57,694 nucleotides of DNA from an uncultured archaeon (GTDB lineage: Archaea > Aenigmatarchaeota > Aenigmatarchaeia > GW2011-AR5): assembly GCA_964456345.1 (NCBI GenBank), contig CAYVZO010000001.1, positions 1-57,694 on the forward strand. Reading direction: 5' to 3'. The translations under genes and the position numbers were made by a program. Below are positions 11,389 to 54,767 of the stretch, piece by piece; the stretch's first letter is position 1; each line of letters begins with the position of its first letter. Below the pieces are notes generated by a model. That model did no database searches, was not told where the DNA came from, and saw only the letters and a list, made by a program, of their open reading frames with translations.

Positions 11389-12345
11389 TTGTTATTCATG
11401 TTGAAAAAATACCGGCTGGTGCTGATAACCATAAGTATTCTGATATTGCTGGCCATTGTATGGTTTGCAAACCCCCAGCTTCTTTTCTCCTACCTACTGA
11501 AAAGCGACATAAGGTTTGTGCTGCTTGGTCTTTTGGCATCAGGGCTTGCGCTTGTCATACGCGTATTGAAATGGTATGTCCTGCTTGATAACGTGAAATT
11601 CACAGAACTCATGCCGGTACAGCTCCTCGGGATAGCGATAAGCAACATGACGCCAGGCAAGGTGGCAGAGCCTGCAAAAGCTGTTCTTCTGAAATTGAGG
11701 ACAAATAAAGATGTGTCCAAGACCCTGCCTTCGGTCATCTGGGAGAGGCTGCTGGATATTATAATACTGGTGTCTTTTGCTCTATTCGGCATACAGCTAT
11801 TCGGCCTGAAGGCAAATTTCTACTCCTTAAGTGTGTTTGCTGTCGGGGCCTTTGTCTTGCTTATAGCCATGCTACTGGTTGTTCTGTTTATCAAAAGAGT
11901 TGGCATATTTGTCTTTAATACCCTGAGAAGGCTACCTTTGCTGAGCAGGGTTTCTGAGGATTTTGTCCATGCATTCTACGAAAAAAAGGTCAGGAAAAGG
12001 CGTCTGGTTATATGCTTCCCGATAACTGTTTTGCCGTGGATTCTCGACGGACTGGTTCTCTATTTTGCAGGGCTGGCTGTGGGTATTGAAATAACTCCGT
12101 TTGTAGCCATAGGTGTCATAACGCTCTCTGTGCTCATAGGCATTGCAAGCTCCCTGCCTGGCGGCCTTGGTTCAGCAGAGGCGGTTTCTATACTCCTCCT
12201 TGGGCTGGTTGGGATATCCAGCGCACCTGCTGCTGCAGTCGTCTTTCTCGCGCGCTTCCTTTCTTTCTGGTTCTCCATATTAATAGGCGGGCTGTCATTC
12301 ATCTATCTGAGCAAGAAAATAGACATGAAAGCATTGAAGTTCTAG
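11389..12345 (+). CDS. Flippase-like / lysylphosphatidylglycerol-synthase TM-region family (UPF0104) membrane protein
   Basis: 318 aa with about 8 TM helices. A VIRVLKWYVLL-type segment after TM2 is typical of the family. Divergent from the glycan operon. Confidence 0.55.
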   Translation: MLFMLKKYRLVLITISILILLAIVWFANPQLLFSYLLKSDIRFVLLGLLASGLALVIRVLKWYVLLDNVKFTELMPVQLLGIAISNMTPGKVAEPAKAVLLKLRTNKDVSKTLPSVIWERLLDIIILVSFALFGIQLFGLKANFYSLSVFAVGAFVLLIAMLLVVLFIKRVGIFVFNTLRRLPLLSRVSEDFVHAFYEKKVRKRRLVICFPITVLPWILDGLVLYFAGLAVGIEITPFVAIGVITLSVLIGIASSLPGGLGSAEAVSILLLGLVGISSAPAAAVVFLARFLSFWFSILIGGLSFIYLSKKIDMKALKF

Positions 12346-19791: not shown

Positions 19792-19998
19792 TTACCCAAT
19801 ATACGAGTCATCTGGCAGAACAAGGTCTTCTGGTCTTGTCACGCTGTCGATATCAGGCTCTTCTGGTTCTTCTGTAATTGTTTTTCTTACCCTCCTACCA
19901 ACAGGTCCTAGATATCTGCTCGTAACCTTGTCGCCTTTTCTTATTGACTCGTAATAGTACTTTCTGCCATTGATGGTTTTGATGTGTTTGTTAGGCAT
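19792..19998 (-). CDS. Hypothetical small basic protein with acidic tail
   Basis: 68 aa. INGRKYYYESIRKGDKVTSRYLG, then an acidic, Pro-rich C-terminus. No family assignment possible. Confidence 0.4.
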   Translation of the reverse strand: MPNKHIKTINGRKYYYESIRKGDKVTSRYLGPVGRRVRKTITEEPEEPDIDSVTRPEDLVLPDDSYIG

Positions 19999-20017
19999 GG
20001 AATCACTCTAATTCGTT

Positions 20018-20028
20018 GTGAAGTTCAC
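20018..20028. promoter_or_regulatory. Perfect 11-bp palindrome GTGAAGTTCAC upstream of the small ORF 19792..19998
   Basis: Read directly from the sequence. It has the same GTGAA half-site as the 47-kb iteron array. Confidence 0.35.
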
Positions 20029-20177
20029 TATTTAAGGTTTTTGTCATTCGGGTGGATATTTCGGAAATGTCATGTTCATCCCCATGTTCATAATGCCAAT
20101 TCACACCCCTTCATTTCCACTGCAAATGTATTCATATAACAGCGTTATTGATATGAACAGCTAGAAATAGTCTAGGA

Positions 20178-24040: not shown

Positions 24041-25255
24041 TCACTCAAAACGCTCGTCAAGGAAGGTCTTGACCTTTTCGAGAACAGAATCGTTTATGGC
24101 GAGCGATATTTCCCGTGTCCTGCCATAACGGCCCTTTGATATCACCTTTGCGTTTATTATACCCAGCATATCAAGCTCGCTTATAAGGTCGCTTACCCTC
24201 CTCTGTGTCAGGCATTTCAGAGCGTTGTCCTGGCATATCCTTTTGTAGGTATTGAAAACATCTCCTGTAAGGAGCCTCCTGTCAACCCATGTGCCTCCGT
24301 TGTTTTCGTGACCATTGCCAAGCCGTATTATGGCGTTCAGGACTGCTTGTGAATGTTTTGGCTGCGTCTTTATGGTTTCAGATACCCTATCCAGGTCGAT
24401 TTTCTCTTCAGCTGCATCAACGTGCCTTTCTTCTATATCCTGGTCGCCAAGGCGTTCGCTTATTTCTCCCGCCACCCTCAACAGGTCCAGGGCGCGCCTT
24501 GCATCACCATGCTCTTGCGCAGCAAGCGCTGCACACTTGTTTATCACATGGTCTTTTATCTCACAATTGAACCCCTGCTTTATCCTCTGAGACAAGATGT
24601 CCCTTAGCTGAACAGCGTCATAAGGCCTGAAAATCGCCTCTTCCTCACTAAGCGAGGACTTTATCCTCTGGTCCAGCGTATCGCGGAACGACAAATCATT
24701 TGTAATGCCTATGATTGTCACTGTGGAGTTCTTTAGGTCGGTATTAATCCGCGTGAGATTGTAAAGGAACTCATCTCCTATTTTCCTGAAAAGGTTGTCT
24801 ATCTCGTCCAGAACGATGATAAGTGCCTGTTTCTTCTCGTCTATAGTATCAAAGAATTTTCTGTAAAGAACATCGGTTGGCAGTCCTGTATCAGGCACGG
24901 TCTCGCCAAGCTCTTTCAGCATCTGTGCCAGCAAACGGTATTCTGTATCCGCCACCTTCTTCATCTTGCAGTTTATGTATATTGATGTTATGTTTCTGTT
25001 CTTTGTTATCTGTTTTAGCTGACTCAACACGAACTTCACTACAACTGTCTTGCCTGTCCCGCATGTACCATATATGAAAAGGTTGTTAACACTATATCCA
25101 CGAAGCGCAGGCGCGAGGACAGCGCTTATCTGTTTTATCTCCTCTTCCCTGTGCAGTATCTTTTCAGGAGTGAAATTAGCAGTAAGTGCGTTTTTGTTCT
25201 TAAAAATAGTGGGTTTTTCTAAATAAGTAGAAAATATATTATCCACAAACCACAC
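24041..25255 (-). CDS. cdc6: Orc1/Cdc6 replication initiator
   Basis: Walker A GTCGTGKT, Walker B IIVLDEID, GDARRALDLLR and a C-terminal winged helix. GTG start. Confidence 0.95.
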   Translation of the reverse strand: MWFVDNIFSTYLEKPTIFKNKNALTANFTPEKILHREEEIKQISAVLAPALRGYSVNNLFIYGTCGTGKTVVVKFVLSQLKQITKNRNITSIYINCKMKKVADTEYRLLAQMLKELGETVPDTGLPTDVLYRKFFDTIDEKKQALIIVLDEIDNLFRKIGDEFLYNLTRINTDLKNSTVTIIGITNDLSFRDTLDQRIKSSLSEEEAIFRPYDAVQLRDILSQRIKQGFNCEIKDHVINKCAALAAQEHGDARRALDLLRVAGEISERLGDQDIEERHVDAAEEKIDLDRVSETIKTQPKHSQAVLNAIIRLGNGHENNGGTWVDRRLLTGDVFNTYKRICQDNALKCLTQRRVSDLISELDMLGIINAKVISKGRYGRTREISLAINDSVLEKVKTFLDERFE

Positions 25256-25465
25256 CCCAAACTAACCTTAATTTCTTTTAGAAAGTATATAAATATATCT
25301 CTATCGGAAACTAAGGTTATTAACCTATATTTTTTGAAAACAAAAACCCCCCTATATTTCTTATAGAGACCTTGTGTTGTTGTTTTTCTTTCTATAACGA
25401 TGTTATAAGAAGCTATGGTTGTTGATTTTGACAAAGTTTTAAATTCTCCATAAGAAAACAGCCCC
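25256..25465. promoter_or_regulatory. orc1/cdc6 upstream region (promoter; classical position for an oriC, but short)
   Basis: 210 bp, AT-rich. It contains TAACCTTA / TAAGGTTA inverted copies and the 13-bp palindrome AGGTTATTAACCT. No ORB-like long repeats seen. Confidence 0.3.
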
Positions 25466-45070: not shown

Positions 45071-46576
45071 ATGGTATATACTGCACAGGATCTTAGAGAT
45101 TTTTCCAATAGAGAACTCGGAGATGTGAACTATTTAGTAGCGTCAAAGAGGCAGCCAAGGAGGCATTATAGATCAGAGAGTGGCGAAATAAAAATACAAG
45201 AGACGTCAGGAGGACTTACAAGAGCTCTCGAGCCTCCTGTCAGATATTCCAATGGTGTTTGGGTAGCTTCTGCAGACACAGAGGCCGATTTCGAGGTAGT
45301 GCAAGCTGACAACAGCGTAATGGTCCCTTCAAGAGACCCGAAATACAAGCTTCTGAGATTATGGCTAAGAGGAAGGGGCGATTTCCCAAACAGGTATCTA
45401 TGGTTCAATTTCCATAACGTCCCAGGGATAACCCCCAGGTTTAATGCTAGAATGTTTACTGATTATCTATTTGACAACCGTCAGTACAGTATCAGCATAG
45501 ATCACGAAGCTCTCAGAGCAGAGAAAGCTGGCAAGAGAACCTTGGCAGATATCCAAGACTATCACCTTCTGCTTGTTGGTCAGGATCTCGAGTGGCTGAA
45601 TCCTGACGTATTCAAGATGCTTTTTATTCATACCCCGTGGCCTACGGCTGATGAATACTGTGAAATGCCCGAGCCTGCAAGATATAAGATAGCCAAAGAT
45701 ATGCTCGCTTTCGATATTCTTGGGTTTCAGACGGAAAAAGATTCGGAGAATTTTATGAATACCATAGAAAAAACCGTCAAATGTGCAAGAACCAAGGACG
45801 ATGGCCGTATCACTGTTAACGGACATTTAGCATTGGTTCGCAGCTATCCTATAGGTATAGATTATGATGAAATAAAGGCCCGGGTTGCAGACAGAGAGAG
45901 AATGGAAAAAGAAACAAGAAGAATCAAGAAAAGACTTGGCATAAAGGAAAACCAGAAAGTCTTTATAAGGTGGGACAGGGCAGACCCCTCAAAAAACATA
46001 CCCAACTCAATCAGGGCTTATGAAAGCTTCCTCGATAGCAACCCCCAGCATATTGGAAATGTTTGCTATTTGGTCATAGCTGAGGAAAGCAGGCAGCACC
46101 TTAAAGTTTATCGCGATTACAACAGAGAGATACGTGACACAGTTGAGAAGGTGAACCAGAAATACGGCTCTGAACTTTACAAACCTGTTATCTTAACAGG
46201 TGGCATACCGCATGATAAATTGCATCCTTACTGGTATATGTTTGACATTCATATAGCCAATTCCTGGAGAGACGGACAACATCTTGGAGTCAAAGAAGGT
46301 GTAGCAGCAAACAAAGGAAATGGCGTTTCGATAATAGGAAACGAAGTAGGTGCTGCTAAGCAAGGCTATTGTAATGGAAAAGGAGCCCTTATTACTGACC
46401 CTAGAAGTGGAGATGCAATTCAGGAGCTGGCAGATTTAATGAAAAAAGCAATAGAAATGCCAGAAGCGGAAAAAGAAGCCAGAATGGCTAATATGAAGAA
46501 GGTTTTCGAGGCAGATAATATTTTCAAATGGGAAGCAGAAAGGCTTGAAGATGCGTTAAACCTTATGAAAAGATAA
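45071..46576 (+). CDS. GT20-family glycosyltransferase (trehalose-6-phosphate synthase-like)
   Basis: SGGLTRAL, LWFNFHNVPG, IQDYHLLLV, HTPWP, DILGFQTEKDSENF, SYPIGIDYDE, RWDRADPSKN and RDGQHLGVKEGVA follow the OtsA motif order. Confidence 0.7.
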   Translation: MVYTAQDLRDFSNRELGDVNYLVASKRQPRRHYRSESGEIKIQETSGGLTRALEPPVRYSNGVWVASADTEADFEVVQADNSVMVPSRDPKYKLLRLWLRGRGDFPNRYLWFNFHNVPGITPRFNARMFTDYLFDNRQYSISIDHEALRAEKAGKRTLADIQDYHLLLVGQDLEWLNPDVFKMLFIHTPWPTADEYCEMPEPARYKIAKDMLAFDILGFQTEKDSENFMNTIEKTVKCARTKDDGRITVNGHLALVRSYPIGIDYDEIKARVADRERMEKETRRIKKRLGIKENQKVFIRWDRADPSKNIPNSIRAYESFLDSNPQHIGNVCYLVIAEESRQHLKVYRDYNREIRDTVEKVNQKYGSELYKPVILTGGIPHDKLHPYWYMFDIHIANSWRDGQHLGVKEGVAANKGNGVSIIGNEVGAAKQGYCNGKGALITDPRSGDAIQELADLMKKAIEMPEAEKEARMANMKKVFEADNIFKWEAERLEDALNLMKR

Positions 46577-46694: not shown

Positions 46695-46997
46695 ATGGGA
46701 AGAAAAAGAGGCTTTGATGAAAAGAAGATAGTATCTATTATTGGTTTATTGGCGAGTAATCCTGACGGATTGTGGCTAAGGCGGATAGCAGTAGAGCTGA
46801 ATTTATCGCCTACTACAGTTTCTAAATATATAGACGGAATCTTAAAGCCACTAGTAGAAGACGTTTCTCTGGGCGGCTCTGGCAAGCCGCTTCTCCGCGT
46901 CATACGGCTAAGGCCTTTTGTTCTTGAGAGGCTTGCTGAAGGCAAGAAAATAAAGCAGATAATGAAGATGCTTGATATTATGAACAAAATAGGCTGA
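46695..46997 (+). CDS. Small winged-helix DNA-binding protein
   Basis: IVSIIGLLASNPDGLWLRRIAVELNLSPTTVSKYIDGIL is an HTH/wHTH pattern. The ATG at 46695 is preferred. Located immediately left of the iteron region. Confidence 0.5.
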   Translation: MGRKRGFDEKKIVSIIGLLASNPDGLWLRRIAVELNLSPTTVSKYIDGILKPLVEDVSLGGSGKPLLRVIRLRPFVLERLAEGKKIKQIMKMLDIMNKIG

Positions 46998-47127
46998 TTT
47001 CCCGGATTATTATACAAATACTTTTGTTATATAGATTTTTTTGTGCCTTATAAAGGGCAAATATGGATTTTAAGGAGCTAAAAGTTATATTTTATTCTTA
47101 AATTTTTAAGATTTAGGCTCTCTAAAC

Positions 47128-47589
47128 CTCACAGAATACTCATATTTGCTCACAAACAGTATAGGTATATATGAAGGTTGCGTGAATATCTCGTGAACAT
47201 ATCGTGATATTCACGTGAACATAGTGGTTTTACGTGAATATTTCGTGAATACCTGTGAATATATGTGAACTTGAAATGAATATATCGTGAACATCAGTTT
47301 TAAGCCTCACAAAAACAATAAAAATAGCACTGAAAACTCACATATTGGCCTTTATTCCATGTTTTAGCCGTAATAACCTTCACAAAACCTTCACTTTACC
47401 CTTCACAAAACCTTCACAAAACCTTCACCATGTTCACAGTGAAAGAAATATCTAAATTTGGCATTCACGTGAAGTTCATAAACATTCATGTGAATATATC
47501 GTGAATATCACGTGAAGTTGTTAAATAAGCGTGAACATCATCGTGAACATGCTAAAATAGCTCGTGAAGGTACGTGAAATTGGAGTGAA
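47128..47589. repeat. Iteron array: about 26 copies of a GTGAA/TTCAC core (consensus about CGTGAAYAT) with 10-12 bp phasing, in three blocks
   Basis: Counted by eye: 18 GTGAA and 8 TTCAC on the + strand, plus near-copies. Blocks at 47182-47291 (direct), 47377-47437 (inverted orientation) and 47464-47589 (direct). Confidence 0.9.
47377..47429. repeat. Tandem 11-bp repeat CCTTCAC(A/T)AAA, about 5 units, followed by the dyad TTCACAGTGAA
   Basis: ccttcacaaaaccttcactttacccttcacaaaaccttcacaaaaccttcacc read directly. The dyad lies at 47433..47443. Confidence 0.9.
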
Positions 47590-47624
47590 TATCTAGGCAT
47601 AGTTTTTTAAACCGAGGCATATAT

Positions 47625-48899
47625 ATGAATAAAATGGAAGAGGAGAGAAAAGAAAAGCAAGATAGCCAAGACCAGCAAACAACTGCGGCAAACGAGCCTG
47701 CAGAGGCAAAACAAGAAGAGAAGAAACTAGGGGATTTAGGCACCCCCAAAGAGCAAAAAGATAGCCAAGAAGCAATGCCCGAAAAGAGCATCCTAGAGAC
47801 GCCTCAAACACTAACAAAAGAAATCTCTGAGAAAATGCCCGAGAAGTCGAACAGGACCAAGGAATGGATGAATGAGATTGGATGGTCAAGAAGCCCTTTC
47901 ACCTTTTCCATAGTACCTGAGTTATTTGTCGGCTATATTGAACAGGTAAACAGCATTGTCACCCTGCTTGAGGAAAAACATAAAGTAATACTTTTGGTCG
48001 GGCCAACCGGGTCCGGGAAAACGACGCTCTTGAAATGGGTTTCAGGCAACCTTCCTGAAGAATTCGACTATATTTTTATAGGAAAACCCCCTGAAAGAGC
48101 AGAAGAATTCGTTGATATATTCAATGAAAAGTTCAGAGTTCCCTGGTACAAGAGGCTGTTTACCTCTAACATAAAAAACATACACCAGATACCTGAAAAA
48201 CTTAACAAGAAACTTAAAAAGCACCTGGTTATAATGTTTGACGAAGCACACGAATCCTCGATAGATGTTCTTGAATGGCTAAGGGTATTCAGCGACCAGG
48301 TAAATAATATGTCTGTCCTCATAGCAGGACTGCCAAGTTTTGATGAAAAATTGTCTGAGCTTGAGACACTCAGAAAAAGGATTGTGACAAAAACAGAGCT
48401 TATATCCCTGACAAAAGAAGAAACTACAGAACTCATAAGGAAAAGAATAGCAAGCGTAGGCGGGAAAGATCTGAGGCCGTTTAATGCTGATATCATATCG
48501 GAGATATACGAAAAAACAGGAGGCTTTCCTCGCGAGGTCATTCGTATATGCAATGACCTTGTGAATAAGGCAGTCAAAGCGTATAAATTCGACGTAACCC
48601 GTGACATGCTTATAGGTGAGAAGGCTGAGGAAAAGAAAGTTTCCTTGGACATTCTGGACAGGATGACGCCGCTTCAGAAAGAAATAATGCAGCTGCTTTC
48701 GAAGGGCGCTTACACACCAGGGGAGGTTGCGAACTCGCTCGATCTGAGCAAATACAAAAGCAGGCAGCATGCGGTGCGTTCGATAAACAATATTATGAAG
48801 AGGCTCATGGCCGAAGGCTTTTTGGAGAGAAGTAAGCGTGACAAGGCTTATATCTACTCACTGGTGCCGCAGCTGAAGACAATCCTGATAAAATCATAG
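47625..48899 (+). CDS. AAA+ ATPase with C-terminal winged helix (Orc1/Cdc6-like architecture; ExeA/TniB-like ATPase core)
   Basis: Walker A GPTGSGKT, Walker B VIMFDEAH, GGFPREVIRICN, and C-terminal LQKEIMQLLSKGAYTPGEVANSL...RLMAEGFLER. The first ~85 aa are a low-complexity K/E/Q-rich region. Confidence 0.75.
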   Translation: MNKMEEERKEKQDSQDQQTTAANEPAEAKQEEKKLGDLGTPKEQKDSQEAMPEKSILETPQTLTKEISEKMPEKSNRTKEWMNEIGWSRSPFTFSIVPELFVGYIEQVNSIVTLLEEKHKVILLVGPTGSGKTTLLKWVSGNLPEEFDYIFIGKPPERAEEFVDIFNEKFRVPWYKRLFTSNIKNIHQIPEKLNKKLKKHLVIMFDEAHESSIDVLEWLRVFSDQVNNMSVLIAGLPSFDEKLSELETLRKRIVTKTELISLTKEETTELIRKRIASVGGKDLRPFNADIISEIYEKTGGFPREVIRICNDLVNKAVKAYKFDVTRDMLIGEKAEEKKVSLDILDRMTPLQKEIMQLLSKGAYTPGEVANSLDLSKYKSRQHAVRSINNIMKRLMAEGFLERSKRDKAYIYSLVPQLKTILIKS

Positions 48900-49020: not shown

Positions 49021-49278
49021 ATGATAAAGAACAGAGGGAAGGATCTGGTTGGAAGGGTAATAGTTTCTGAGGAAACCGGACGCAAGTTTGGCGTGGTCGG
49101 TGATATAAATTTCGTTTCCGAAAGCGGAGAATTACTAAGCCTGGTTTTGGTCGAGCCGACAAAACACAGTAATGACCTTAACCTAGAGAGGGACGAAAAT
49201 AACAAGATCTTGATTCCATTTTCTTCCGTGAAAAGCGTCGGAGATTTCGTTATAATCTCCGAGAAAGAGATAATTTGA
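49021..49278 (+). CDS. PRC-barrel domain protein
   Basis: LVGRVIVSEETGRKFGVVGDINFVSESGELLSLVL...ILIPFSSVKSVGDFVII fits the PRC-barrel pattern. 85 aa. Confidence 0.7.
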   Translation: MIKNRGKDLVGRVIVSEETGRKFGVVGDINFVSESGELLSLVLVEPTKHSNDLNLERDENNKILIPFSSVKSVGDFVIISEKEII

Positions 49279-54392: not shown

Positions 54393-54767
54393 ATGAATAT
54401 GAGAAAAATTTACCTGTTGGGCAATCCCCTCGTTGATGCGGACAGCCTGCCGCTGAAGATAGCCAAGAGTCTGCAGAAGGAATTCCCTGCCATAGAGTTT
54501 GCAGAGTTCGACCCGACAGAAGACCTCCCGGAAGAAATGATAGCAATAGACACCGTAATCGGCATAGACAAAGTAAAGGTAATCGATAACATAGATGACG
54601 TAATCAACGGCAAAATTTATTCTTTGCACGACTTCGACATAGGCTTCAACCTCAAGCTCATGAAAAAGCTGGGAAGGATGAAGAACGTAAAGATAATAGG
54701 GATACCAGCTGGCCTCACCGAAGACGAGGCAGTAAGTAAAGTGAGCGAGAAGATAAGAAGCCTCTAG
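54393..54767 (+). CDS. Hydrogenase maturation endopeptidase (HycI/HoxM-like)
   Basis: IYLLGNPLVDADSLPLKIA N-terminus and LHDFD region are typical of Ni-dependent C-terminal processing proteases. Convergent with the large-subunit gene. Confidence 0.7.
   Translation: MNMRKIYLLGNPLVDADSLPLKIAKSLQKEFPAIEFAEFDPTEDLPEEMIAIDTVIGIDKVKVIDNIDDVINGKIYSLHDFDIGFNLKLMKKLGRMKNVKIIGIPAGLTEDEAVSKVSEKIRSL

Follow-up and report, generated by a model that had tools for sequence, protein, structure and literature searches.

A winged-helix AAA+ ATPase of the ExeA/MuB type and its phased RTGAA array: an origin-like or centromere-like element in Aenigmarchaeota and other DPANN archaea?

The 57,694-nucleotide contig CAYVZO010000001.1 of an uncultured archaeon of the Aenigmatarchaeota (assembly GCA_964456345.1), the whole of which is referred to here as the window, carries at 47625..48899 on the forward strand a gene for an AAA+ ATPase with a C-terminal winged helix (wH), read from an ATG start codon and encoding 424 residues. 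Directly upstream lies a dense array of short repeats, and at the far edge of the array a gene for a small helix-turn-helix (HTH) protein. An initial annotation of the contig had singled out this arrangement as a self-contained module of repeats, ATPase and DNA binder, potentially a second origin or the relic of an integrated replicon. The analyses reported here reveal that the array and the ATPase gene are linked in all Aenigmarchaeota loci compared and, in a weaker form, in other DPANN lineages, and that the presence of the array follows the conservation of the recognition helix of the ATPase. The module looks like an origin-like or centromere-like chromosome element that has not been described before.

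The gap between the small HTH gene and the ATPase gene (46998-47624, 627 bp) is longer than any other non-coding stretch of the contig and has the lowest GC content (0.32, compared with 0.44 for the window); Rfam and tRNA scans of the window gave no match, hence the gap holds no known RNA gene. It contains 18 copies of GTGAA and eight of TTCAC, i.e. 26 per 600 bp versus a window mean of 1.4, such that the GTGAA array described upstream of the ATPase gene in the initial annotation is clearly present and greatly exceeds chance expectation. Almost half of the CGTGAA hexamers of the window (13 of 27) fall within the gap, as do 21 paired sites (palindromic or one helical turn apart), compared with seven in the other 57 kb. 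Two isolated palindromes of the same unit kind as those of the array, GTGAAGTTCAC at 20018-20028 (within a 354-bp gap at 19824-20177) and GTGAAATTCAC at 11593-11603, may be single binding sites off the array, or may have arisen by chance. The array itself is organised in three blocks, the second of which is reversed relative to the others, with interspersed boxes containing CTCAC (Table 1); the last block ends ~35 bp before the ATPase start codon.

Table 1. Features of the array, the ATPase gene and its two flanking genes in the window
Feature	Position	Strand	Basis or details
Small HTH gene (100 residues), left edge of the array	46695..46997	+	Weak Pfam HTH matches (GerE 1.9e-6)
AT-rich leader of the gap	46998..47123	.	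Most AT-rich part, 72-77% AT (position-aligned average over loci)
First CTCAC box pair, AAACCTCACA and CTCACAAAC	47124..47163	+	Families D9, D11; pair precedes block I in most loci
Block I, ~9 RTGAA at 10-11 bp spacing	47170..47296	+	Families D1-D4
GTGAA of block I	47182, 47193, 47215, 47234, 47245, 47255, 47265, 47287	+	
Central box pair, AAGCCTCACAAAA and AAAACTCACATAT	47299..47345	+	Alignment of central regions
Block II, tandem A(A/C)CCTTCAC at 11 bp (RTGAA reversed)	47374..47438	-	Family D5; kept in nearly all loci
TTCAC of block II	47379, 47390, 47402, 47413, 47424, 47433		
Palindromes (TTCACGTGAA at 47464) and block III RTGAA	47439..47592	+	Families D6, D8, D10
GTGAA of the block III region	47439, 47469, 47490, 47501, 47512, 47531, 47543, 47564, 47574, 47585		
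ATPase: disordered K/E/Q-rich N-terminal tail, residues 1-72, with the MPEKS and 12-mer duplication	47625..47840	+	pLDDT, composition
ATPase: N-motif EW..GW..(S/N)PFTF.I.P.LFVGY, then AAA+ base and lid	47856..48614	+	AAA_22, ATPase_2, TIGR03015, invariant residues
ATPase: Walker A	48000-48023	+	
ATPase: Walker B	48228-48251	+	
ATPase: GGFPRE/sensor-2 Arg	48519-48554	+	
ATPase: C-terminal winged helix	48651..48896	+	Recognition helix KYKSRQHAVRSINNI at 48750-48794
PRC-barrel gene, downstream neighbour of the ATPase gene	49021..49278	+	PRC 7.7e-6 (Pfam)

The linkage of gene and array is found in 28 of 28 distinct Aenigmarchaeota loci, in which the recognition helix KYKSRQHAVRSxNN is conserved and the full array occupies an upstream gap of 360-730 bp. 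In 25 of these the density of GTGAA/TTCAC is 18-52 per kb in the gap compared with 1-3.5 per kb outside; the other three are very AT-rich and use ATGAA in place of GTGAA, and the core of the site is thus RTGAA. The spacing of RTGAA sites on the same strand (787 sites) has its maximum at 10-11 bp and harmonics close to 21, 31 and 42 bp, implying that the sites lie on one face of the helix. The arrays comprise ~25-35 phased sites and have the same multi-block layout in nearly all loci. An AT-rich leader is followed by two CTCAC boxes and by block I, with 6-12 RTGAA in the forward orientation; then come a (C/T)CTCAC(A/G)AA box, a gap of ~35 bp and a AAACTCACATTT box (based on an alignment of the central regions of 23 loci), and block II, in which three to six tandem A(A/C)CCTTCA(C/T) units at 11 bp have the opposite orientation. 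Palindromes of the TTCACGTGAA type and a short AT-rich spacer lead to block III, whose three to six forward RTGAA stop a few tens of bp short of the start codon.

Whether homologues elsewhere are preceded by such arrays was the check that the initial annotation proposed; beyond Aenigmarchaeota the linkage is also seen, in a weaker form, in four further DPANN lineages. At the locus designated L063 the recognition helix is conserved as SYKTKQHAVRSVNNI, and a 720-bp gap holds RTGAA at 24 per 500 bp, together with five or six CTCAC boxes. At L007, L058 and L064, which are without a small HTH gene upstream of the ATPase gene, the YK..HA.R..NN core of the helix is conserved and repeats of the form (C)TTCAC(G) occur at 12-15 per 500-600 bp (median 1). 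The latter repeats (L007:7270-7980, L058:7550-8000 and L064:1900-2445) have ~11-bp spacing and lie partly within the 5' end of the LigT gene, which abuts the ATPase gene in these lineages; on the LigT coding strand they encode Val-Lys codons, and they recall the cluster of origin recognition boxes (ORBs) within dp1 of Pyrococcus (PMC1904270). At L058 an ACGTTA(A/C)C repeat is interleaved with them. In the Nanobdellales (L057 and L065) the helix has diverged to KERYNDATIHAISNI, and there is no GTGAA/TTCAC in 600 bp; the orthologue there has DEATF in place of DEAHE, its gene neighbourhood is different, and a tRNA-like sequence, read by eye, lies directly upstream of it. Across these DPANN lineages the array is thus present where the recognition helix is kept and absent where it has diverged. 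Since its presence tracks the helix of the adjacent ATPase and not Orc1, comparison of these loci points to the adjacent ATPase as the probable binder of the array.

A second type of site is the CTCAC box. These boxes, of which there are four or five per locus, all in the forward orientation, are confined to loci with the small HTH gene upstream and are otherwise absent; their extended form is AAACTC(T)CACATTT, as in the two box pairs of the window (47124-47163 and 47299-47345) and at L063:4281-4540. Because the boxes co-occur with the gene, their distribution suggests that they are candidate sites of the small HTH protein. The latter is 60-86% identical across Aenigmarchaeota and keeps its position at the left edge of the array; its gene is part of the conserved module, as the initial annotation proposed. 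A PDB sequence search with the small HTH protein gave no informative match, and its comparison by hhalign with an HTH gene downstream of the PRC-barrel gene at L007 gave a probability of 8%.

The sequence features ascribed to the ATPase in the initial annotation were all located, i.e. GPTGSGKT at residue 126, VIMFDEAH at residue 202, GGFPREVIRICN at residue 299 and LQKEIMQLLSKGAYTPGEVANSL at residue 350, together with an N-terminal region (residues 1-85) consisting of 45% Lys, Glu and Gln, in which MPEKS occurs at residues 51 and 71, and a 12-mer, AGATAGCCAAGA, at 47660 and 47759 in the 5' part of the gene. A third exact copy of the 12-mer (54457-54468) is in another reading frame (..LKIAKSL..), has no link to the ATPase N terminus and is probably a chance match. 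In an AlphaFold2 model of the whole protein (mean predicted local distance difference test score, pLDDT, 82.5; 291 residues at or above 90) residues 1-72 are disordered, with pLDDT below 50, and the AAA+ region is modelled with pLDDT above 90. The K/E/Q-rich tail differs in length even among closely related proteins, and more distant ones lack it, hence its duplication is a lineage-specific local expansion of low-complexity sequence without wider significance. Among 39 sequences sharing 46-66% identity with the window ATPase, the Walker A motif GPTGSGKT and DEAHE, with D206/E207 of Walker B, are invariant, as are R252 in LRKRI and G300-R303 in GGFPRE(V/I); the recognition helix is likewise mostly invariant in all 39 (Y377, R380-S386, N388 and N389). 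The AAA+ ATPase therein appears to be intact.

With respect to its family, the AAA+ module is closer to the ExeA/TniB-type ATPases than to Orc1/Cdc6, as had been proposed in the initial annotation. The Pfam matches of the window ATPase include AAA_22 (2.6e-13; 50.9 bits versus a gathering score of 27), which is matched by all 39 members, ATPase_2 (1.2e-9) and, weakly, a Penicillinase_R-type winged helix over residues 348-412 (4.6e-4); NB-ARC and nSTAND are also among the matches of the family. The best NCBIfam match is the ExeA-like TIGR03015 (4.5e-21), yet its 75.5 bits are well below the equivalog cut-off of 324.5, and the best PHROG match is the MuB/TniB-like 'DNA transposition protein' phrog_296 (2.5e-11). 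The Cdc6_lid (PF22703/PF22606) and Cdc6_C (PF09079) domains are absent from the Pfam matches of the window ATPase and from the 25 top families across the 39 members. An hhalign comparison of the ATPase alignment with 20 Aenigmarchaeota Orc1 sequences gave a negligible probability (5.3%, E 0.0073), pairing GGFPRE..IR of the ATPase with HGDARRALDLLR of Orc1; BLASTP of the ATPase against Orc1/Cdc6 gave an E value of 0.078. PDB sequence searches with the single ATPase sequence and with a profile returned P-loop matches only. A PADLOC search likewise gave weak P-loop matches only and nothing specific, and an assignment to a defence system was rejected.

The domain order, an AAA+ module followed by a C-terminal winged helix, is that of Orc1/Cdc6, as noted in the initial annotation, and the fold reflects this. 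In a Foldseek search of the PDB with the whole model, ranks 1-16 are all ORC/Cdc6 chains (E 5e-13 to 7e-10, 360-446 columns), the first being 7jgr_A (Drosophila Orc1, 4.9e-13), followed by 1w5t (Aeropyrum ORC2), 2qby_A (Sulfolobus Cdc6-1) and 1fnn (Pyrobaculum Cdc6); sequence identity in the Orc1/Cdc6 alignments, over 360-420 columns, is 14-17%. The margin is modest, given that RuvB, STAND proteins of the NLR/Apaf type and MuB come next with E values of 1e-9 to 2e-8; the top target-normalised TM score in the list (0.65) belongs to the MuB filament 8xvb. In a DSSP analysis of the model, strand 147-152 is followed by helices 161-169 and 186-196 and then by strand 200-205, an arrangement that is compatible with an initiator-specific motif, an additional helix between beta2 and beta3. 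When the winged helix was modelled alone (pLDDT 87.9), the top 50 Foldseek matches comprised RosR, CzrA/SmtB, MecI/BlaI, AspA and PadR proteins and no Cdc6 winged-helix domain, i.e. the domain is regulator-like rather than Cdc6-like. The protein is, then, an ExeA/MuB-type AAA+ ATPase joined to an ArsR/PadR-type winged helix, which has the domain order of Orc1/Cdc6 without membership of that family.

Comparison with three better characterised groups defines the family further. It shares with Orc1/Cdc6 the three-domain order of AAA+ base, lid and C-terminal winged helix, the best structural matches of the whole model, the Walker A and B motifs, a box VII-like Arg and a sensor-2 Arg in G-x-x-x-R-x-(V/L), as well as a gene position beside clustered short repeats that face in opposed directions. 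It differs in that Cdc6_lid and Cdc6_C are not among the Pfam matches described above, in its ArsR/PadR/BlaI-like winged helix, in the repeat, which in DPANN has a 5-bp core and a 10.5-bp period compared with ORBs of 13-36 bp, and in its coexistence with a genuine Orc1/Cdc6, which has ORBs of its own and is encoded 22 kb off. ExeA/GspA/MshM proteins (COG3267; TIGR03015) provide the best sequence-level match for the base and lid, and the nearest bacterial relatives are of the ExeA/MshM type, encoded beside type II secretion system (T2SS), type IV pilus or secretin genes (L008 and L011 adjoin T2SSE/T2SSF or a secretin) and without a DNA-binding domain. By contrast, members of the DPANN family end in a winged helix and are encoded among genes of DNA metabolism, beside a cognate repeat array; none of ~45 archaeal loci has T2SS, type IV pilus, secretin or PEP-CTERM genes nearby. 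MuB, TniB and TnsC, which form ATP-dependent polymers on DNA, are matched best in PHROG and, for MuB, by TM score (8xvb); unlike the DPANN protein they bind DNA non-specifically, without a sequence-specific winged helix or an array of sites, and no transposase is present in the conserved neighbourhood of the ATPase gene.

The canonical Orc1/Cdc6 of the window, from which the ATPase is far removed in sequence as the initial annotation had it, is encoded on the minus strand at 24041..25255 (Cdc6_C 4.6e-25 and Cdc6_lid 1.7e-20 in Pfam). Directly upstream of its gene (25256-25465) are three 13-nt TCTCYATMRGAAA elements, at 25298 (+), 25357 (-) and 25445 (+), one of them followed by a G-string; they are the sole three matches of the pattern in the window, and since the pattern was set after the elements had been seen, an estimate of chance occurrence is indicative only. 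The likeness to ORBs is independent of that pattern because other Aenigmarchaeota have ORBs at the same position, i.e. CTCCACAGGAAATGTTGGGGTGT with inverted copies in L060 (2690-3005; element form CTCCACAGGAAATGTTGGGG), ACTTCCATATGAAATGCTGGGGGG and TTCCATAGGAAA in L061 (2600-2960) and ATTTCCATAAGAAATTATGGGGTG in L062 (2560-2870). The invariant cores of mini-ORBs are TTCC and GAA (PMC1904270). Judged by these elements, the orc1-DP1(-PolB) cluster has an ORB-type origin signature of its own, as in Thermococcales, and the region upstream of orc1 is probably the primary oriC of the phylum.

Elements of the orc1 type are absent from the array, which is a separate element with a recognition code other than that of the ORBs; with a canonical ORB-type origin 22 kb away, it would be an additional element. 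The distance between the array and orc1/cdc6 is 17.5, 22, 30 and 48 kb on four Aenigmarchaeota contigs, 7.6 kb at L058 and 7.7 kb at L007, such that the array is regionally linked to the canonical origin on six of six contigs and adjacent to it on none. We considered whether the array is bound by the canonical Orc1/Cdc6 as part of the canonical origin, the ATPase being an accessory or unrelated protein. The shared chromosomal region would fit, as would the palindrome TTCACGTGAA, which loosely resembles the mini-ORB TTCCAGTGGAA (PMC1904270); however, Aenigmarchaeota orc1 genes have other ORBs, TCTCYATMRGAAA with a G-string or CTCCACAGGAAATGTTGGGG, which the array lacks, and the array comes and goes with the recognition helix of the ATPase beside it and not with Orc1. 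Binding by Orc1/Cdc6 is hence very improbable in our judgement.

The ATPase gene sits in a strongly conserved neighbourhood. Gene order hardly varies among ~40 loci from metagenomes and several genome contigs, and comprises a small OB-fold gene (-), LigT (-), the small HTH gene (+), the gap, the ATPase gene (+), a PRC-barrel gene (+), RadA (-), RPA (-) and a histone gene (-). In the window a GT20 (trehalose-6-phosphate-synthase-type) glycosyltransferase gene (45071-46576) separates LigT from the small HTH gene, an insertion seen on this contig only; elsewhere the junction holds PhoU/PHO4 or nothing, and its variable content implies that it tolerates insertions. The locus is a vertically inherited, housekeeping chromosomal neighbourhood, and the proposal of the initial annotation that it might be the relic of an integrated replicon did not hold. 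Such a relic of a plasmid or virus, with iterons and a Rep-like ATPase, would share its form with iteron-plus-rep modules, but the same order with LigT, RadA, RPA and histone genes recurs in the ~40 loci, which come from different samples and several DPANN lineages, there is no integrase at the locus, PADLOC gives nothing specific and the BFVD matches are generic clamp-loader/AAA+ folds. We regard this origin as the least credible of all those considered, and with fixed chromosomal synteny, generic BFVD folds and no affinity to viral or plasmid Rep proteins, a viral or plasmid Rep origin was rejected.

The reading that we favour, tentatively and at somewhat less than an even chance, is that the assembly marks a second replicator, independent of Orc1/Cdc6, in the origin-proximal region. 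It is favoured because of the Orc-like fold, the signature of an initiator gene beside repeats and the opposed arrays. The scheme of binding, ATP dependence, oligomer geometry and replication role that we infer is as follows. The recognition helix KYKSRQHAVRSxNN would read the 5-bp core RTGAA, with one protomer per RTGAA, and the one-turn spacing would align the protomers on a single face of the DNA, with their AAA+ modules 35 Å apart. In the ATP state neighbouring AAA+ modules would touch via the Arg in LRKRI and the sensor-2 Arg in GGFPRE, and cooperative oligomers may then grow along the three blocks, block I facing block II and block II facing away from block III. With block III located at the promoter of the ATPase gene, the complex should also autoregulate, and the small HTH protein would probably read the four CTCAC boxes.

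There is precedent for such a design. Archaeal origins usually adjoin an initiator gene and bear clusters of repeats (PMC1904270), and the oriC of Escherichia coli has clusters of four DnaA 9-mers 2 bp apart, in two oppositely oriented arrays (PMC6070618). DnaA resembles the DPANN protein in that its AAA+ module precedes a DNA-binding domain at the C terminus, and E. coli oriC resembles the DPANN array in its 11-bp-period arrays in two opposed groups, on which DnaA oligomers grow cooperatively and in an ATP-dependent manner (PMC6070618), as is proposed for the ATPase; there is, though, no sequence relation beyond AAA+, and the DNA-binding domain is a winged helix in the one case and the domain IV HTH in the other. 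The proposed logic of assembly is also the same as that of Orc1 on inverted ORBs.

Several observations weigh against the assignment of a second replicator. The negligible profile similarity to Orc1 and the regulator-like winged helix have been described above, and a canonical ORB-type origin is present beside orc1/cdc6 here and in three other Aenigmarchaeota. A second origin 18-48 kb from the first would have no obvious use in a genome of ~1 Mb, a size that we estimate from the largest contigs. At L007, L058 and L064 there is no long gap or spacer, and the repeats overlap the coding region of the divergent LigT gene. A position-aligned AT profile reveals no strong AT-rich unwinding element between blocks I and II; AT content is highest in the leader and in the stretch that separates block II from block III. 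Of these points, the nearby canonical origin and the want of a clear unwinding element weigh most. Finally, the GC skew of the 57.7-kb contig follows gene strand, with no interpretable switch at 25 or 47 kb.

Some of the same observations are also those expected of a centromere-like or organising site, in which the array would be a loading platform on which the ATPase and the small HTH protein build a complex for chromosome segregation or organisation, possibly coupled through the PRC-barrel protein to division. R1 parC, which precedes an ATPase gene, has a central region bordered on both sides by repeat clusters of 11-bp period, and tolerance of sites within coding regions is typical of the parS type. 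The array likewise consists of 11-bp-period clusters upstream of an ATPase gene and beside the gene of a small DNA-binding protein, it is origin-proximal but not origin-adjacent on the six contigs, it is essentially the sole cluster of sites in 57 kb, and its sites are tolerated within a coding region. The design of the array is thus like that of R1 parC, and AspA, a centromere-binding winged-helix protein of pNOB8, is among the top fold matches of the DPANN winged helix, although that match is weak (E ~1e-3) and stands amid generic winged HTH regulators. The motor would be of another kind, as the ATPase is an AAA+ protein and not ParA, ParM or TubZ; no ParA-like gene lies within 5-8 kb on either side at the loci examined, and the locus, unlike those of R1 and pNOB8, is chromosomal and kept across phyla. 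We know of no partition system with an AAA+ motor.

The PRC-barrel gene is part of the same argument. Its 85-residue product is 64-88% identical between loci, more conserved than the ATPase, and the gene adjoins that of the ATPase in nearly every locus; the orientation of the PRC-barrel gene is flipped in some loci. At L059, L063 and L064 the two are separated by a DUF92 gene. PRC-barrel proteins (CdpB) function in archaeal cell division, although not all PRC-barrel proteins do so (10.1101/2023.03.28.534520); the ATPase-array neighbourhood is absent from the account given in that paper. The constancy of this neighbour hints at a link to the cell cycle and is in favour of a centromere-like site, but its flips in orientation are incompatible with a strict operon. 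Taking these points together we think a centromere-like or organising site, analogous to parC/ParR of plasmid R1, AspA of pNOB8 or the origin-proximal parS/ParB systems, unlikely.

The ATPase could also be purely a regulator, i.e. an ATP-switched transcription factor comparable with Orc1-2 of Sulfolobus or the MalT-type STAND proteins, for which the array would be an oversized operator for autoregulation, with single sites elsewhere. Orc1-2 of Sulfolobus provides a precedent for a non-initiator Orc-like regulator (PMC9738581). The resemblance of the winged helix to ArsR, PadR and BlaI/MecI repressors accords with such a role, as do the abutment of block III on the ATPase gene promoter, the isolated palindromes GTGAAGTTCAC (20018, intergenic) and GTGAAATTCAC (11593), the Pfam matches to NB-ARC and nSTAND, and the RadA and RPA neighbours. 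However, a conserved tripartite layout with 25-38 phased sites goes far beyond the needs of an operator, paired sites are nearly absent from the other 57 kb, and the array is outside the radA/rpa promoter, these genes converging on the locus from the other side. We judge a solely regulatory role to be about as doubtful as a centromere-like one, and return to the second replicator as the reading preferred to either. Some probability is reserved for roles other than those considered here.

A word-index search for the family yielded over 733 relatives, most of them in metagenome-assembled genomes of Aenigmarchaeota and labelled in their sources as 'AAA family ATPase', 'ExeA' or 'TadA'. An exhaustive HMMER search over 1.84 billion representatives retrieved 113 clusters with E limited to 1e-30 and 10,248 with the limit relaxed to 1e-10, the latter set being the wider ExeA-like superfamily. 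Full-length relatives extend to the Nanobdellota, including Nanopusillus and the cultured Nanobdella aerobiophila. A scan of the genome collection with the full alignment was dominated by the Walker A pattern and gave one useful locus (L007); a scan of metagenomes with the winged helix alone worked. The Nanobdellales orthologue (L057, N. aerobiophila AP019769.1, 428.8-429.9 kb; L065) is annotated as 'thymidine kinase' from a weak PF00265 match, which looks like a misannotation. AAA_22 relatives also occur in other architectures (P0164-P0200, P0309-P0311, P0312 and P0314), comprising proteins with an N-terminal extension of ~200 residues and no winged helix, fusions to tetratricopeptide repeats and an Aenigmarchaeota paralogue with an HTH of the sigma-70 region 4 type; the AAA module has been joined to different partner domains more than once.

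The literature on Aenigmarchaeota or DPANN together with origin, Cdc6 or ExeA gave no account of the protein family, the RTGAA array or their linkage. The design principle, an AAA+ ATPase with a C-terminal DNA-binding domain encoded beside phased cognate repeats, is known, whereas the family, the site and the DPANN-wide module are not. The archaeal initiators known to us are Orc1/Cdc6 and, in Sulfolobus, the Cdt1-like WhiP, and chromosome handling in DPANN is, to our knowledge, essentially unstudied. In its broadest form, which we consider slightly less probable than a second replicator, the proposal is of an ancient, self-contained and Orc1/Cdc6-independent system of chromosome maintenance in several DPANN phyla, in which the ATPase, derived from the ExeA/MuB type and equipped with a winged helix of its own, would polymerise on a dedicated RTGAA array with one protomer per turn, and which would be either a new class of cellular replication initiator, an archaeal counterpart to the DnaA solution, or the first AAA+-driven centromere.

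The overall results provide a pair of protein and DNA site kept across phyla, with a testable code, i.e. RTGAA, a 10.5-bp period and an invariant recognition helix, and allow the database names 'ExeA', 'TadA' and 'thymidine kinase' to be corrected. They also give a handle on uncultivated lineages in the form of a purifiable 40-kDa protein and 450 bp of DNA. If the element is a centromere or organiser, it would represent a new class of motor for chromosome segregation; if it is a replicator, it would imply that DnaA-like origin recognition arose independently in archaea, from a family of ATPases of secretion and transposition.

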